Shown here: positions 21,374 to 55,893 of the stretch, piece after piece
How positions within the stretch are numbered: position 1 is the stretch's first letter
How the letters are laid out: every line of letters starts with the position of its first letter
Assembly (NCBI RefSeq): GCF_004296935.1
Contig: NZ_SCVH01000097.1
Span: 6,093-70,092, forward strand
Direction of reading: 5' to 3'
DNA: 64,000 nucleotides
Source of the DNA: Reyranella sp.
Lineage (GTDB): Bacteria > Pseudomonadota > Alphaproteobacteria > Reyranellales > Reyranellaceae
The notes under the pieces: generated by a model
The model's database searches: none
Told to the model about the DNA's origin: nothing
Seen by the model: only the letters and a program-made list of their open reading frames with translations
Position numbers and translations under genes: made by a program

Positions 21374-21380
21374 CACGGAT

Positions 21381-21409
21381 TTGCAGGTTCAGCAGGTTTG
21401 GCGTATATT
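21381..21409 (+). promoter_or_regulatory. sigma70-type promoter of module A (TTGCAG-17 nt-TATATT)
   Basis: Near-consensus hexamers with 17-nt spacing. The same arrangement is conserved in copy B. Confidence 0.55.
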
Positions 21410-21416
21410 TTCAGGT

Positions 21417-21480
21417 AGATTGGCGATGTTTCGCCAGCACTGCCAGCACCGCCCGAAGGCTTCGCCTCCGGGCGTTTTTT
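21417..21480 (+). ncRNA. candidate small RNA (about 64 nt) ending in an intrinsic terminator
   Basis: Predicted start about 7 nt after the -10 hexamer. Internal hairpin TGGCGA-tgtt-TCGCCA. Terminator stem CGCCCG...CGGGCG with inner stem AGGC/GCCT, followed by TTTTTT (21475-21480). Confidence 0.45.
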
Positions 21481-21664
21481 ATGGTCCACGAATGGTCCAT
21501 TTTCTGTAACCGCCGGGGGACACCGATGACGACGGGCAGTCATCGCCGGTGGCACAGTTCGTCGGGGCGAGATTGCTCTTTTAGACCATACCGTTGATTG
21601 CGGTTTTTGGCACAGGCAGCGGCACACCGCGTGGCACAACGAGGTGTGCCACGAAATGGTCCAC

Positions 21665-22156
21665 TCAGGGTTCGTCCCGGACCTTCCGGTTGAGCAGGCT
21701 GCCCAACACCAGGCCGAGGACGAGGTCGTCCTCGGCGCCGAAGGTCAGGTGCACAATGCGCCCCGCGCGGTCGATGACGACGGTCGAGGGCGTCCCCTTG
21801 AAGCCGTAGGCAGCCATCGTGAGCGGAACGGGACCGTCCGGTGAGGGGCGGTCGACGGCGACCGGCATTTTCAGGCCATACTCGTGCAGGAAGGCTTCCA
21901 GTGAGACTGGCGTCATGGCCGCGTGATGCTCGAAGACGGTGTGGAGGCCCAGCACCACGAGATCGTCGAGACCCTTGGCGATCTCGTGCAGGCGCCGCGC
22001 CTGTGGGACGGCATGGGCGACGCAGCCGGGACAAAGCATCTGGAAGGCATGCAGCACCACGACCTTGCCGCGAAACATGTCGAGCGCCAGCGGCCTGTCG
22101 GTGTTGAACCAGCGCTCGGCCTCGATCGGCGGTGCCGGAATCGGTGCTTCGTTCAT
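21665..22156 (-). CDS. TlpA/redoxin-like thioredoxin-fold protein
   Basis: CPGC redox motif inside FRGKVVVLHAFQMLCPGCV. 163 aa with a thioredoxin-fold length and pattern. Confidence 0.75.
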   Translation of the reverse strand: MNEAPIPAPPIEAERWFNTDRPLALDMFRGKVVVLHAFQMLCPGCVAHAVPQARRLHEIAKGLDDLVVLGLHTVFEHHAAMTPVSLEAFLHEYGLKMPVAVDRPSPDGPVPLTMAAYGFKGTPSTVVIDRAGRIVHLTFGAEDDLVLGLVLGSLLNRKVRDEP

Positions 22157-51623: not shown

Positions 51624-53969
51624 TTGCTCATGATGACGACGGGCGTTTCGTTGGCCGCATTGATGGCCGAGGCGGGCGAGCTGCGCGATCGCGGCCATGG
51701 CCGCTTGATTTCGTATTCGCGCAAGGTGTTCATTCCGCTCACCCACCTCTGCCGCGACGTCTGCCACTACTGCACCTTCGCTGAGCGGCCGCGCGCCGGT
51801 CAGCCGGCCTACCTCTCGCCCGACCAGGTTCTCGCCATCGCCCGCGCCGGCGCGGCCGCGGGCTGCACCGAGGCGCTGTTCACCCTGGGCGACAAGCCGG
51901 AGCTGCGCTACAGCGCGGCACGCGAGGCGCTGGCGGCGCTTGGTCACGAGACCACGATCGGCTACCTGACGGAAATGTGCGGCCGGGTGCTGCGCGAGAC
52001 CGGGTTGCTGCCGCATGCCAATCCCGGAGTCATGACGCGCGAGGAGATCGCGGGCCTGCGCGCGGTGACGGCGAGCCAGGGCATCATGCTCGAATCGACC
52101 AGCGAGCGGCTCTGCGAAAAAGGCGGCGTGCATTACGGCTCGCCCGACAAGCATCCGGCGGTACGGCTGGAGACCATCCGACTCGCGGGCGAACTGAAGG
52201 TGCCGTTCACCACCGGCATCCTGATCGGCATCGGCGAGACGCGCGACGAGCGTATGGAAGCGCTGACTGCCATTCGCGACCTGCATGCCGCGCACGGCCA
52301 CATCCAGGAAGTGATCGTCCAGAATTTCCGCGCCAAGCCCGACACCAAGTGGGCCGACGCCGACGAGCCCGATCTCCAGGACCTGCTGTGGACCATCGCC
52401 ATGGCCCGCAAGATTCTCGGGCCCGACATGAACCTCCAGGCGCCGCCCAATCTGTCGCCGGGCGTCTATCCGCGCCTGATTGCGGCGGGGCTGAACGACT
52501 GGGGCGGCATCTCGCCGGTGACGCCCGACCATGTGAACCCCGAAGCGCCGTGGCCTGCCATCGATGAACTGGCGCGGCGCAGCGCCGAACTGGGCAAGGT
52601 GTTGGTCAACCGCCTGCCGCTCTATCCCGCCTATGCCCGTGACCCCGACACCTGGCTTGCGCCCGAAGTCGCGACGCAGGTCCGGCGTATGAGCGACGCC
52701 GAGGGCCTCGCTCGCGACGACGACTGGTCGCCCGGCGAGACCACGCCGCCGCCCGCGCCGCGCGTCCTCGTGAGCGGCGTCGATTCCGCGATCGCTCGCG
52801 CCGTCGACCGCGCGACGTCGGGCGAGCGCCTCGATCCGCCGGAGATCGTGCGCTTGTTCGCGGCCCGCGACGCCGACTATCGCCACGTCACGGGCGCCGC
52901 CAATGCGCTGCGTCAGGCGGTCAGCGGCGAGGTCATACGCTACGTCGTCAACCGCAACATCAACTACACCAACATCTGTTATTTCCGCTGCAAGTTCTGC
53001 GCCTTCTCCAAGGGTCGCACGCACGAGGACCTGCGTGGCGCGCCCTACGATCTGGCGCTCGACGAAGTGAAGCGGCGCGCCGTAGAAGCCTGGGAGCGTG
53101 GCGCCACCGAAGTCTGCATGCAGGGCGGCATCCATCCCGACTATACGGGCGAGACCTATGTCGCGATCTGCAAGGCGATCAAGGAAGCGGTGCCGGGCAT
53201 GCACATCCACGCCTTCTCGGCGCTGGAAGTGACCCAGGGTGCGGCGACGCTGAAACAGCCCATTCCTGAATTCCTCGCCAGCCTGCAGCAGGCCGGCCTC
53301 GGCACCCTGCCGGGCACGGCGGCGGAAATCCTCGACGACGAGGTCCGCGCCATCATCTGCCCGGACAAGATCAACACCGCCGAGTGGCTGGGCGTGCAGC
53401 GCGCCGCGCACGGGCTCGGACTGCGCACGACTTCGACCATCATGTACGGCCACGTCGAGACGCCGCTTTCCTGGACGCGGCATCTGCTGGCGCTGCGCGA
53501 TTTGCAGAGCGAGACCGGCGGCTTCACCGAATTCGTGCCGCTGCCGTTCGTGCACATGGAAGCGCCGATGTACCGGCAGGGCCGCGCCCGCCGCGGGCCG
53601 ACCTTCCGCGAGGCGGTGATCATGCATTCCGTCGCGCGCCTGGCGCTGCACCCGGTGATCCCCAACATCCAGACCTCGTGGGTCAAGATGGGCCCGGCCG
53701 GTGCCGCGATCTGCCTGGAGGCGGGCGCCAACGATCTCGGCGGCACCCTGATGAACGAGAGCATCTCGCGCGCGGCCGGCACGCAGCATGGCCAGGAATT
53801 CCCGCCCGACGCCATGGAGGCGCTGATCCGCTCGATCGGCCGCACCCCGCAGCAGCGCGACACGCTCTATCGCACTGTCCCGGAGGAGCGCCGCGCGGCG
53901 TCGCTGGTCGCCGCCGACCTCGCGCCGCTCGTGCTTACGCCGCCCCGCAAGCGGGCCGCCGCGGCTTAG
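51624..53969 (+). CDS. fbiC: bifunctional FO synthase (7,8-didemethyl-8-hydroxy-5-deazariboflavin synthase, CofG+CofH fusion)
   Basis: 781 aa with two radical-SAM CxxxCxxC motifs (CRDVCHYCTF and CYFRCKFCAF), one in each half, as in FbiC. Confidence 0.92.
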   Translation: MLMMTTGVSLAALMAEAGELRDRGHGRLISYSRKVFIPLTHLCRDVCHYCTFAERPRAGQPAYLSPDQVLAIARAGAAAGCTEALFTLGDKPELRYSAAREALAALGHETTIGYLTEMCGRVLRETGLLPHANPGVMTREEIAGLRAVTASQGIMLESTSERLCEKGGVHYGSPDKHPAVRLETIRLAGELKVPFTTGILIGIGETRDERMEALTAIRDLHAAHGHIQEVIVQNFRAKPDTKWADADEPDLQDLLWTIAMARKILGPDMNLQAPPNLSPGVYPRLIAAGLNDWGGISPVTPDHVNPEAPWPAIDELARRSAELGKVLVNRLPLYPAYARDPDTWLAPEVATQVRRMSDAEGLARDDDWSPGETTPPPAPRVLVSGVDSAIARAVDRATSGERLDPPEIVRLFAARDADYRHVTGAANALRQAVSGEVIRYVVNRNINYTNICYFRCKFCAFSKGRTHEDLRGAPYDLALDEVKRRAVEAWERGATEVCMQGGIHPDYTGETYVAICKAIKEAVPGMHIHAFSALEVTQGAATLKQPIPEFLASLQQAGLGTLPGTAAEILDDEVRAIICPDKINTAEWLGVQRAAHGLGLRTTSTIMYGHVETPLSWTRHLLALRDLQSETGGFTEFVPLPFVHMEAPMYRQGRARRGPTFREAVIMHSVARLALHPVIPNIQTSWVKMGPAGAAICLEAGANDLGGTLMNESISRAAGTQHGQEFPPDAMEALIRSIGRTPQQRDTLYRTVPEERRAASLVAADLAPLVLTPPRKRAAAA

Positions 53970-53979
53970 GCCATTCGAA

Positions 53980-54008
53980 TTTGCAAGTTCAGCCGGTTTC
54001 GGCTATGT
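53980..54008 (+). promoter_or_regulatory. sigma70-type promoter of module B (TTGCAA-17 nt-TATGTT)
   Basis: Hexamers and 17-nt spacing are conserved with copy A. Confidence 0.5.
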
Positions 54009-54014
54009 TTTTCG

Positions 54015-54078
54015 CTATATTGGGCGCGCTGCGAGCCTGATGATCGAACGCCCGACGGATCCTTCCGCCGGGCGTTTT
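54015..54078 (+). ncRNA. candidate small RNA (about 64 nt) ending in an intrinsic terminator
   Basis: Terminator CGCCCG...CGGGCG with inner stem CGG/CCG, followed by TTTTT (54074-54078). Same predicted length as copy A, but the body sequence is diverged. Confidence 0.4.
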
Positions 54079-54277
54079 TCGTGGTCCACAAATGGTCCAC
54101 TTCGGCGATCTTTTTCAGACATTCATCCCGGCAAGCGGCGGGTGCCGGTGGCACAGTTTATCGGGGGGCGATTGCCCTGCGGGACCAAGGCCTTGAGGCT
54201 GGTTCATGGCACAGGTCGATGGACACGTCGTGGCACAACGAGGTGTGCCAGAAAATGGCCATTCCCGCCGTGCGCGC

Positions 54278-54964
54278 CTAGCCGATTCCCCGGTCCACCA
54301 GCAGTCGGGGGATGCCGGCCTCTTCGAGGAAGGCCCGCGTGCGGGTGCCGGCCGACTGCGGCAGGCGGAGGAAGGCGGCGAGGTCGGCGGGGTGGTCGAT
54401 GTCCATGGCAATACCCGGCTGGCGGATCACCGTCGGCTCGATGCCCGCGCGCCGCGCCGCCTCGAGATGCGGGAAGTAGCTGTTCTCGCCGAAACGCAGC
54501 GGCACGGCATCCGGTGGCGAGCAGATGACGGCGTTGGAGCCGAGATCGTCATGCGCCGGCGAGATGGTGAAGGAGGGAGCGCGAAGATGCGACGCCAGCA
54601 CCGCGTCGATCTCGGCCGAAGTAGCGGCGGGAATGTCGCCGGGAAGCGTGATCATGCCGCCGCGACCTTCGCGGGCGAGCAGGCGGAGGCCTGCCGTGAC
54701 GCTGCCGGTGTGGCCGTCGCGGGCGCCGTCGGTCACCACGCGCGCGCCGAGGCGCGAGGCCAGCGCCGTCGTCTGCGGGTCGAGGGTGACGACCATGATG
54801 CCGGCGAGGCCGCGCGCGCCGGCCACGGCGTCCAGTACCTCGCCCACCATGACTTCGATTAGCGCGCGGCGCTGGGCGGGTGAGAGCAGGGGGGCGAGCC
54901 GCTGCTTGGCGCCATCCAGTTCCTTGACGGGCACGACCGCCCAGATGTCGGCCGACGCGCTCAC
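54278..54964 (-). CDS. cofC: 2-phospho-L-lactate / phosphoenolpyruvate guanylyltransferase (F420 biosynthesis)
   Basis: IWAVVPVKELDGAKQRL N-terminus and MITLPGDIP motif of CofC/FbiD. GTG start at 54964 overlaps the cofD stop (GTGA). It is the last gene of the fgd-cofE-cofD-cofC operon. Confidence 0.85.
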   Translation of the reverse strand: MSASADIWAVVPVKELDGAKQRLAPLLSPAQRRALIEVMVGEVLDAVAGARGLAGIMVVTLDPQTTALASRLGARVVTDGARDGHTGSVTAGLRLLAREGRGGMITLPGDIPAATSAEIDAVLASHLRAPSFTISPAHDDLGSNAVICSPPDAVPLRFGENSYFPHLEAARRAGIEPTVIRQPGIAMDIDHPADLAAFLRLPQSAGTRTRAFLEEAGIPRLLVDRGIG

Positions 54965-55893
54965 GTGAGCGAATCGGCGAAGGCGAGAACGGTGCGTGCC
55001 AGCGCTTCGCGGTCGGCGAGCGTCGTCATCAGGGTGGGGGCGACGTGCAATTTGGCGCCGATGTCTCCTGAATCGGCGGCATCGACGACATAGCCGTCGA
55101 GCAAACCGTCGTAGCGCCCGGCCGCGGCGGCGGAACTCACGGGCAGGCCGAGTTCCTGCATCATCTTCGCCGTCGGTCCCTTGACCGCGCGGCCGCCGAC
55201 GATCGGCGACACCGCCACGACAGGGGCGCCGCAATTCTCGATCGCCGCGCGCATCCCGGGCACGGCCAGGATCGGCTCGATGCTGATGAAGGGGTTGGAC
55301 GGGCAGATCATCACCGCCCGCACCTTGCCGCTGCCCAGGGCTGCCATGACGTCGGGCTGGAGCCGGGCGTCGGCCGCGCCGGTGAAGGCGAGTTCCTGCA
55401 CGACAGGGCGGCACTGCTGGCGCACGAAATAGTCCTGGAAGTCGATCCAGCCGCTGTCGCTGCGCACACGCGTGCGCACGCGATCGTCGCTCATCGGCAG
55501 CACGCGCGGGCCGACGCCGAGCCGCCGGCACACGTCGGCAGTGATCTGCGACAGGGTCTGGCCGGCGCCGAGCCGCTTCGTCCGCTCGACATGCAGCGCG
55601 AGGTCGCGATCGCCGAGGCGGAACCAATCCTCGCCGCCCAGGGCGGTGATCGTCTCCATGAACGACCAGGTCTCGTCGCGACGGCCCCAACCGGTGACCG
55701 GATTGTCGAGGCCGGCCAGCACGTAGGTGAGCGTGTCGATGTCCGGGCAGATGCTGAGGCCGAGATGCTCGAAATCATCGCCGGTGTTGGCCACGACCAG
55801 CAACTCGTCCGCCGGCAGCACGCGGCTGAGGCCAAGCACCAGCTTGGCACCACCGACGCCGCCCGACAGGGCAACCACCAGGCTTTTGCTCAC
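54961..55893 (-). CDS. cofD: 2-phospho-L-lactate transferase (F420 biosynthesis)
   Basis: VVALSGGVGGAKLVLGL, NTGDDFEHLGL and WFRLGDRD motifs of CofD/FbiA. Confidence 0.9.
   Translation of the reverse strand: MSKSLVVALSGGVGGAKLVLGLSRVLPADELLVVANTGDDFEHLGLSICPDIDTLTYVLAGLDNPVTGWGRRDETWSFMETITALGGEDWFRLGDRDLALHVERTKRLGAGQTLSQITADVCRRLGVGPRVLPMSDDRVRTRVRSDSGWIDFQDYFVRQQCRPVVQELAFTGAADARLQPDVMAALGSGKVRAVMICPSNPFISIEPILAVPGMRAAIENCGAPVVAVSPIVGGRAVKGPTAKMMQELGLPVSSAAAAGRYDGLLDGYVVDAADSGDIGAKLHVAPTLMTTLADREALARTVLAFADSLT

Follow-up and report, generated by a model that had tools for sequence, protein, structure and literature searches.

Two gene-less copies of a dispersed Reyranella repeat family derived from a cassette with a TerS-like gene, and their reading as protein-binding, possibly pac-like, chromosomal sites

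Two intergenic units lie in the same orientation in a 64,000-nucleotide (nt) stretch of Reyranella sp. DNA (contig NZ_SCVH01000097.1, positions 6,093 to 70,092; hereafter the window)—copy A at 21378-21664 and copy B at 53977-54262, both on the + strand. Copy A is flanked by a GFA gene (+) and a gene for a redoxin AhpC-TSA protein (-), copy B by a CofH/radical-SAM fusion gene (+) and a gene for a CofC-like protein (-); these Pfam assignments agree with the flanking genes as first described in a sequence-only reading of the window. The two units are diverged and align colinearly at the coordinates that reading gave, and blocks common to both—the 21-mer GTGGCACAACGAGGTGTGCCA, the 15-mer GCCGGTGGCACAGTT and the block TGGTCCAC-R-AATGGTCCA—each occur exactly twice in the window, where shuffles predict about 0 to 0.1 occurrences. 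Here we report that both belong, as gene-less members, to a repeat family dispersed in Reyranella (Alphaproteobacteria), and we discuss what such a family may do.

Measured from the -35 hexamer, the shared blocks start at 101, 164, 227 and 249 nt in copy A and at 101, 163, 226 and 248 nt in copy B. The sequence-only reading had placed them at 101, 169, 227 and 250 nt in both; its values of 101 and 227 hold for copy A, while 169, 250 and the identity between copies do not. Nor is the net indel zero over about 290 bp, as it had counted, because there is one 1-nt indel in the spacer past the TGGTCCA block; the strictly indel-free part is a core of 147 nt.

The family was collected in several ways. 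An exact 21-mer search of species-representative genomes gave 25 loci, nearly all in Reyranella metagenome-assembled genomes (MAGs) with three to five per genome; the looser pattern TGGCACA-N17-TGGCACA-N6-TGTGCCA gave 85 metagenome loci and no match in viral contigs. A profile of the core yielded 102 strong matches that represent 94 distinct cores, of which 87 are exactly 147 nt long, and these occupy 52 distinct genomic loci once orthologous positions are collapsed, with nearly all copies in Reyranella. One assembly carries a copy on each of nine contigs, all at ~7x coverage (at least nine copies). The core profile found no further copies inside the window or within the 8-14 kb around other copies, and plasmid records held no similar sequence. 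The sequence-only reading had left the possibility of a private duplication to a count of homologues; so many copies and loci with the same architecture contradict it. We found no description of the family in Rfam, annotated collections or the searchable literature, where we also found nothing on Reyranella intergenic repeats or on orphan small terminases with dispersed sites. The parts are of known kinds—a terminase small subunit (TerS), pac-like arrays, PR'-type promoters, and gene-less derivatives—and it is their combination and their dispersed, selected state that are new.

A search with the promoter block alone revealed a long form of the unit. At five or more loci outside the window, the promoter lies ~500 nt 5' of the core, and the order is promoter, terminator, ribosome-binding site, an open reading frame (ORF) of 155-166 amino acids, and array; the full cassette measures ~0.75 kb. 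The last ~7 codons and the stop of the ORF are core columns 1-22, and the array beyond consists of ~125 nt of (T/C)GGCACA heptamers. By tblastn, the gene is intact at L097/L019, L109, L066 and L095 (collected loci carry L numbers), frameshifted at L062, and reduced to its first 30 codons at L068, its first 21 at L053 and its last 32 at L051. Since L068 is the orthologue of the intact L019, 5' of thiC, the gene was lost in place. A search for empty sites among the collected loci returned none, only the further-deleted variant L039, an orthologue of L011 with an internal core deletion. In the window copies the ORF is gone save its last ~7 codons, and what is left is promoter, terminator, a ~45-nt spacer and the 147-nt core; the TerS homologue gene that adjoins the array in long members has been lost. 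Given the long form and the deletion series, the short unit of the window is therefore a gene-deleted derivative of the ~0.75-kb cassette—an anatomy and an origin of which we are nearly certain. The sequence-only reading called the unit non-coding, which is right for its present state and wrong for its origin, the 5' 22 nt of the core being the remnant of an ORF 3' end.

The protein encoded by the long form has an N-terminal helix-turn-helix (HTH) and matches Pfam PF20901 (Sf6 terminase small subunit-like) at 32.3 bits against a cutoff of 27, and PHROG 4044 ("terminase small subunit") at E 2.8e-20. By tblastn, 35 phage records match it at 33-40% identity, most of them annotated as small terminase; a sequence search of solved structures gave nothing significant. 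An AlphaFold2 model (mean pLDDT 89) compared by Foldseek with predicted viral structures gave 15 matches at E<=1e-3, and those with names are small terminases (template modelling score, TM, 0.39-0.57). Transposase and recombinase models show this only ORF to be without a catalytic domain—the insertion sequence (IS) models IS3 and IS630 score far under their cutoffs and cover the HTH only—and none of the defence-system models fit. Homologues of the protein, almost all of them from Reyranella, fall into 88 clusters, with two or more in each MAG. Invariably the gene has only housekeeping genes around it; the following gene is usually convergent, ~125-145 nt past it, and occasionally co-directional, as with thiC. 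In the closest phage relative, L125 (MW202455.1 5174-7506), an annotated antitermination protein Q gene lies 40 nt 5' of the TerS homologue and the large terminase gene lies 3'; the short Q-TerS gap contains no obvious PR'-like sequence.

The conserved parts of the unit are maintained in place. At orthologous loci whose flanks are 80-95% identical, family-conserved columns are ~98-100% identical and variable columns 30-45% identical; at ~85% flank identity the variable columns stand at ~35%. The orthologue of copy B, L038, has flanks that are 87% identical and a core that is 93% identical. Gene-less copies likewise keep their promoter and terminator, as seen in seven genomes at the creA locus. 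The sequence-only reading argued for a functional element under selection as opposed to chance or a recent duplication, and the number of copies and loci, with conserved columns at ~100% while the rest drift, bears this out. Part of the excess divergence is exchange between paralogous copies: at the creA locus the left edge of the unit is exactly where synteny ends, the core belongs to a different subfamily, and the creA side is still orthologous (L017, L035, L081, L056, L022 vs L034, L054). The units seem particularly prone to ectopic recombination or rearrangement. The unit at L056 has ~20 additional nt on its right, in which ATGGTCCAC is found together with a second copy of the final creA bases (TATTTGAGGCCGAT ahead of the real TATTTGAG...); the 3' end of the target gene seems to have been duplicated locally.

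The core is built around an array of heptamers that is present in all 87 full-length cores, at columns 34 (R1), 92, 104 and 116 (R2-R4, 12 nt apart) and 129 (R5, inverted); columns 2-7 hold a degenerate version, GGACAC. Together R4 and R5 make an inverted repeat with 7-bp arms around the 6-nt loop ACGAG(G/C), which is conserved as well as the arms although the search pattern left it free; the resulting hairpin is stable on either strand (-17.4 / -15.8 kcal/mol). The motif varies between diverged cassettes. In L111 all heptamers read CGGCACA and the hairpin reads GCGGCAC-N7-GTGCCGC, with the counted column spacing unchanged; in L120 the heptamers are GACACA/GTGTC, and the block order is retained in L120-L124. 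Such an array-wide change is what co-evolution with one binding protein would predict; it could also come from concerted evolution, or from alternative pairings with the single inverted arm. Coordinates for the window copies are given in Table 1.

Table 1. Positions of the elements of copies A and B in the window, with the gene that follows copy A
Feature	Position	Strand	Details
Copy A promoter	21381..21409	+	-35 TTGCAG 21381-21386, 17-nt spacer, -10 TATATT 21404-21409
Copy A promoter spacer	within 21381..21409	+	direct repeat GCAGGTT-CA-GCAGGTT
Copy A second -10-like hexamer	21416..21424	+	TAGATT then GGC, 6 nt past -10; position of the lambda PR' pause element AACGAT-GGG
Copy A intrinsic-terminator-like element	21450..21480	+	GC hairpin 21450-21474, T6 tract 21475-21480
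Copy A spacer tandem	21482..21499	+	TGGTCCAC-G-AATGGTCCA; subfamily motif
Copy A core	21517..21663	+	147 nt, indel-free
Copy A core columns 1-22	from 21517	+	remnant of the final codons of the TerS-like ORF; R0 GGACAC 21518-21523
Copy A R1 TGGCACA	21550-21556	+	
Copy A mini-palindrome GTC...GAT	21561-21573	+	
Copy A degenerate palindrome TCAAG/CTTGA	21586-21597	+	
Copy A R2 TGGCACA	21608-21614	+	
Copy A R3 CGGCACA	21620-21626	+	
Copy A R4 TGGCACA	21632-21638	+	followed by loop ACGAGG
Copy A inverted R5 TGTGCCA	21645-21651	+	
Copy A right-end motif AATGGTCCA	21655-21663	+	
Redoxin (TlpA-like) gene, convergent	21665..22156	-	stop codon 13 nt past TGTGCCA; context, outside the element
Copy B promoter	53981..54024	+	-35 TTGCAA 53981-53986, 17-nt spacer, -10 TATGTT 54004-54009
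Copy B second hexamer TATATT and GGG	54016-54024	+	
Copy B terminator-like hairpin and T5 tract	54046..54079	+	-31.6 kcal/mol, z -3.7
Copy B spacer tandem	54082..54099	+	TGGTCCAC-A-AATGGTCCA
Copy B core	54116..54262	+	147 nt; R1 54149-54155, R2 54207-54213, R4 54231-54237, inverted R5 54244-54250

Several further observations concern the core and its surroundings. A near-palindromic motif, ATGGTCCA(C), occurs in the spacer at -36/-24 in 24 of 85 copies, as one to three tandem copies ~11-12 nt apart, and again at core column 140 in 22 of 85, against a background of 0.37 per kb; in the window it is found at 21482-21499, 21655-21663 and 54082-54099. It resembles the start-codon region of the long form, AAATGACCC, and may represent either another binding site or the scar of a recombination event. 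At L119 (3436-3664), the locus with the protein that has diverged furthest (42% identity), the promoter-terminator is well conserved, the array is degenerate and the next gene is co-directional; this may be a decaying copy. A sigma-54 promoter of the form TGGCAC-N5-TTGC was considered by eye and rejected, the spacing never being right on either strand. The genes around copy B (51624-55690), encoding a 781-amino-acid radical-SAM CofH/CofG-type fusion and a 470-amino-acid CofC-like protein, are coenzyme F420 biosynthesis genes in an alphaproteobacterium.

A promoter module precedes 65 of 85 cores. Across these 65 copies the -35 hexamer TTGCA(G) is 92-100% conserved and the -10 has the form TAnnnT; the 17-nt spacer between them is itself conserved, as the direct repeat GCAGGTT-CA-GCAGGTT (81-100%). 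Six nt past the -10 there is a second -10-like hexamer (NAnnnT), in which position 2 is A in 95% and position 6 is T in 100%, both better kept than in the -10, and which is followed by G/G/G at 83/100/72%. A GC-rich hairpin and U-tract lie 30-60 nt beyond the promoter, in long copies between the promoter and the ORF, and the T-tract ends up ~45 nt ahead of the core in most copies; in L008 the hairpin has a 13-bp stem (-23 kcal/mol) before its U-tract. The promoter hexamers that the sequence-only reading proposed for the two window copies are thus real and supported by family frequencies, and so is its GC hairpin with T-tract, the leader folding at -28.1 kcal/mol (z -2.8) in copy A and at about -32 in copy B. 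The transcribed leader between promoter and hairpin is conserved in neither sequence nor length, so a short RNA is unlikely to be the functional product.

The arrangement has a close parallel in phage lambda. In the lambda record PR' reads TTGACT-17-TAAATT-TGACTC-AACGAT-GGG, a geometry identical to that of the family promoter. Q loads at AACGAT-GGG of lambda, the sigma-70-dependent pause element, and binds an element in the spacer between -35 and -10. A position between these two hexamers is also described for the elements bound by Q, AlpA and GafZ, the last being the antiterminator of the Caulobacter gene transfer agent (GTA) (PMC11150451). In the diverged long cassette L111 (9925-9999) the promoter has a GCAGGA x2 spacer repeat and no terminator hairpin ahead of the ORF, so the attenuator is not universal. 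A third shared motif, GCCAGCAGTGCC / GGCACTGCTGGC, is partly palindromic (TGGCA-N-TGCCA-like) and occurs in either orientation; it stands just 5' of the -35 in L008, L017, L056, L061 and L081, and within the leader in the window (21434-21449), L005, L013 and L059. The alphaproteobacterial LexA consensus is GTTC-N7-GTTC; a LexA box in the promoter spacer was ruled out, the spacing there being N5.

The placement of the units is far from random on their right side. The right-hand gene is convergent at 41 of 46 loci (41:5, p 4e-8), and its stop lies 3-49 nt past TGTGCCA, with a median of ~12; the left neighbour points either way. The suggestion that the units always sit between convergent genes therefore stands for the right side and falls for the left. 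The converging genes share no common functional theme. With respect to replication, the + strand of the unit is the G-rich strand in 58:18 copies, in 50:12 with the coding-strand effect removed, and at 34:13 loci (p 0.003) with orthologues collapsed. Almost all 4-kb bins of the window (1-64000) have positive GC skew, and the cumulative curve climbs without reversal, so that the window lies on one replichore with + as the leading strand; both copies are on +. We infer that a unit which ignores terminators when induced could persist only if it enters the next gene from the antisense direction, and that an actively transcribed unit would be co-oriented with replication; the 41:5 convergence fits a unit with read-through that terminators cannot stop.

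How might these features be explained together? We propose that the conserved blocks are probably protein-binding DNA sites and not an RNA fold. The array would be a pac-like site, bound in trans by an oligomeric TerS-like protein made from the few intact paralogues, and the promoter-terminator would be an antitermination switch of the Q/AlpA/GafZ type. By default its output would be a terminated RNA of roughly 40-65 nt; a cognate antiterminator acting at the spacer element would carry RNA polymerase through the terminator and across the array. The weakest step is the role, which we put forward as doubtful: the units may flag sites on the chromosome to packaging machinery of the phage or GTA type, or titrate terminase. 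For the statement as a whole—a gene-less cassette whose blocks are protein-binding DNA, with a pac-like array and an antitermination promoter—we would give a probability of roughly 55%.

Several points weigh against this proposal. Binding, transcription and packaging are predictions from sequence for every copy. No terminase large subunit, portal, capsid/head or antiterminator gene was seen beside any copy, and every neighbour examined is a housekeeping gene (ThiC, amidase, ABC transporter, epimerase and similar). The family has spread to more than 50 loci without convincing terminal inverted repeats, target-site duplication or a catalytic domain. In the Foldseek comparison with solved structures, small terminases come out on top with weak scores (E 0.4-5). 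The choice of conserved columns was made from within the same data set, and the invariance of the heptamers is partly ascertainment because the collecting patterns fix three of them. Sigma-70 pause-like hexamers are common in bacteria, and the likeness to lambda could be coincidental; the R4/R5 inverted repeat, for its part, might just as well work as a hairpin, either in RNA or in single-stranded DNA.

Among the other explanations, the one that survives best is a selfish, non-autonomous element resembling a miniature inverted-repeat transposable element (MITE), for which the gene-bearing cassette would be the autonomous partner; any DNA with the promoter end and the array would be mobilised, whether by the HTH protein itself or by an enzyme encoded elsewhere, and the conservation would reflect what mobilisation needs and not a host function. 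The copies are dispersed, sharply bounded and located between unrelated housekeeping genes, and a multicopy short form derived from a gene-bearing form is what we found, the two being related as autonomous/MITE pairs typically are. The ~45-nt spacer common to most short copies suggests a single amplified deletion derivative, and synteny breaks at the left edge of the unit. IS200/IS605-type single-strand transposons are biased in orientation relative to replication, and the bias of the family resembles theirs. We nevertheless consider mobilisation of this kind unlikely. There is no target-site duplication or att-like repeat (the longest common substring of cognate flanks is 5.23 nt vs 5.18 for non-cognate flanks), and no convincing terminal inverted repeats: the ends show an imperfect likeness between TTTTCYGGACAC (left) and the reverse complement of GTGTGCCAGAAAA (right), without copy-specific complementarity. 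The sole ORF lacks a catalytic transposase or recombinase domain. Copies within a genome are highly diverged, yet their blocks are kept in place across species, unlike decaying MITEs, and we saw no near-identical copies of the kind that recent transposition leaves.

A second possibility is a domesticated regulator with a dispersed regulon, the TerS-like HTH protein serving as a transcription or nucleoid factor. The arrays would then be roadblock or termination sites for the converging gene, or sites for titration, and the promoter-terminator would modulate their occupancy. The closeness of the array to the stop of the convergent gene favours this, as does the finding that, in the copies read, no intrinsic terminator lies between that stop and the array; some core-only copies occupy the entire gap between two convergent genes, and conservation in place argues for a function at the level of the host. 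Yet the converging genes have no functional theme, the homology is specific to terminase small subunits, and the PR'-like promoter and terminator kept in gene-less copies would be unaccounted for; we regard a regulon as quite improbable.

The unit could also be an RNA element—a small RNA, a read-through RNA over the core, or, on the reverse complement, an element in the 3' untranslated region (UTR) of the converging gene—in which the UGGCACA / UGUGCCA repeats make RNA-protein or RNA-RNA contacts. A good promoter and a terminator delimit a predicted short transcript, the R4/R5 hairpin is stable on both strands, the site right past a stop codon is typical of 3'-UTR elements, and at the small GTC...GAT helix G-U and A-C are asymmetric in a way that slightly favours the + strand. 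The tests of folding speak otherwise. Rfam gave no gathering-level match on either strand of the whole window, the best sub-threshold match over copy A being STnc310 at 23.4 bits against a threshold of 40; the sequence-only reading, which could match the unit to no RNA family or mobile-element end, is upheld by this and by the plasmid records. The base-pair covariation that it had proposed to look for is absent: RNAalifold on 27 cores predicts 15 pairs with no compensatory change (consensus -11.9 kcal/mol), and mutual information across 87 cores reflects subfamily signal, with no helix-like pairs save one ambiguous column pair, and a structured RNA was rejected on these grounds. A long-range stem closing the core was likewise rejected, cognate and non-cognate duplex energies being equal (-27.7 / -27.3 kcal/mol). 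Moreover, the hairpin loop is conserved like the stem, the leader is unconserved, and the 5' end of the core descends from coding sequence. The evidence thus favours protein-binding DNA over structured RNA, and we judge an RNA element to be very unlikely.

Two further candidates for the unit were discarded. A small ORF or type I toxin in the core has no frame open in all copies, substitutions show no 3-nt periodicity (lag-3 autocorrelation 0.03) and the peptides are unconserved; a Rho-utilisation site in the minus-strand RNA would have only a mild excess of C (34%) over G (27%). Finally, that the units are a fortuitous old duplication or independent prophage debris without function is scarcely credible: the parts are phage-derived, but no other phage genes lie nearby, and 94 distinct copies at 52 loci share an identical architecture with an indel-free core and block-wise conservation beside saturated positions.

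If the TerS-like protein does bind the arrays, orphan small-terminase genes would serve dispersed, selected chromosomal sites, and we know of no earlier case of such genes with dispersed chromosomal recognition sites. Bound arrays would bear on how gene transfer agents and transducing phages pick host DNA, and on whether hosts evolve pac sites. Chromosome-wide oriented pac-like sites, orphan TerS paralogues and a shared Q-type promoter might even support packaging from at least ten positions, mostly in the direction of replication—an unlikely extension, in our view. Were it true, the trigger would be either a phage, infecting or helper, or a particle system resembling a GTA, and the outcome either a host-encoded directed gene transfer or a decoy defence that diverts phage terminase. 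Whatever the role, the family offers a predicted switch in an alphaproteobacterium, natural and compact, in which promoter and terminator are combined as in lambda PR', and a clear example of conserved non-coding DNA born of gene loss from a phage-derived cassette.

Comparison with known systems helps to place the family. Like REP (repetitive extragenic palindromic) sequences and the bacterial interspersed mosaic elements (BIMEs) that they form, the family is dispersed, contains palindromes and prefers sites past stop codons between convergent genes. REP/BIME elements are defined by a palindromic unit of 20-40 nt with a GTAG head, hundreds of copies and a RAYT gene; the family departs from them in unit size, with 287 nt comprising a promoter, a terminator, a six-site array and a 147-nt core, and in number, with tens and not hundreds of copies. 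With MITEs it shares a multicopy short form made by internal deletion of a gene-bearing form, an intergenic location and sharp boundaries; it differs in having no convincing terminal inverted repeats, target-site duplication or transposase, and in its old copies conserved in place. Phage satellites—phage-inducible chromosomal islands (PICIs), Staphylococcus aureus pathogenicity islands (SaPIs), and PICI-like elements (PLEs)—similarly hold a chromosomal TerS homologue apart from a complete phage, and switch-on by a helper late regulator would be a further likeness. In contrast to the family unit of 0.3-0.75 kb in many copies, however, satellites are 5-15 kb long and carry integrase, replication and interference genes.

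The closest likenesses are to two phage modules. Compared with the lambda PR'-qut-tR', AlpA and GafZ promoters, the GCAGGTT spacer repeat bears no sequence relation to the Q binding elements that are known, a genome holds some ten or more such promoters, of which most have no gene behind them, and the cognate antiterminator is hypothetical. The layout is nevertheless the same: a -35, a 17-nt spacer with a conserved element, a -10, 6 nt, a -10-like hexamer with GGG, and a terminator. The first gene past the terminator of the long form is the TerS homologue, and in the closest phage relative TerS comes directly after Q. Well-known examples of phage pac/cos sites and their TerS proteins are the lambda cosB R sites with gpNu1, SPP1 pacL/pacR with G1P, and P22 pac, which lies inside gene 3. 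Unlike these, the family has no TerL, portal or capsid genes in cis, its gene stands alone among housekeeping genes, it has at least nine gene-less chromosomal array copies per genome, and binding and cleavage are putative here. As in these systems, a TerS-family HTH gene adjoins a short array of a repeated motif, direct and inverted, at fixed spacing, and in diverged cassettes the array changes as a unit.

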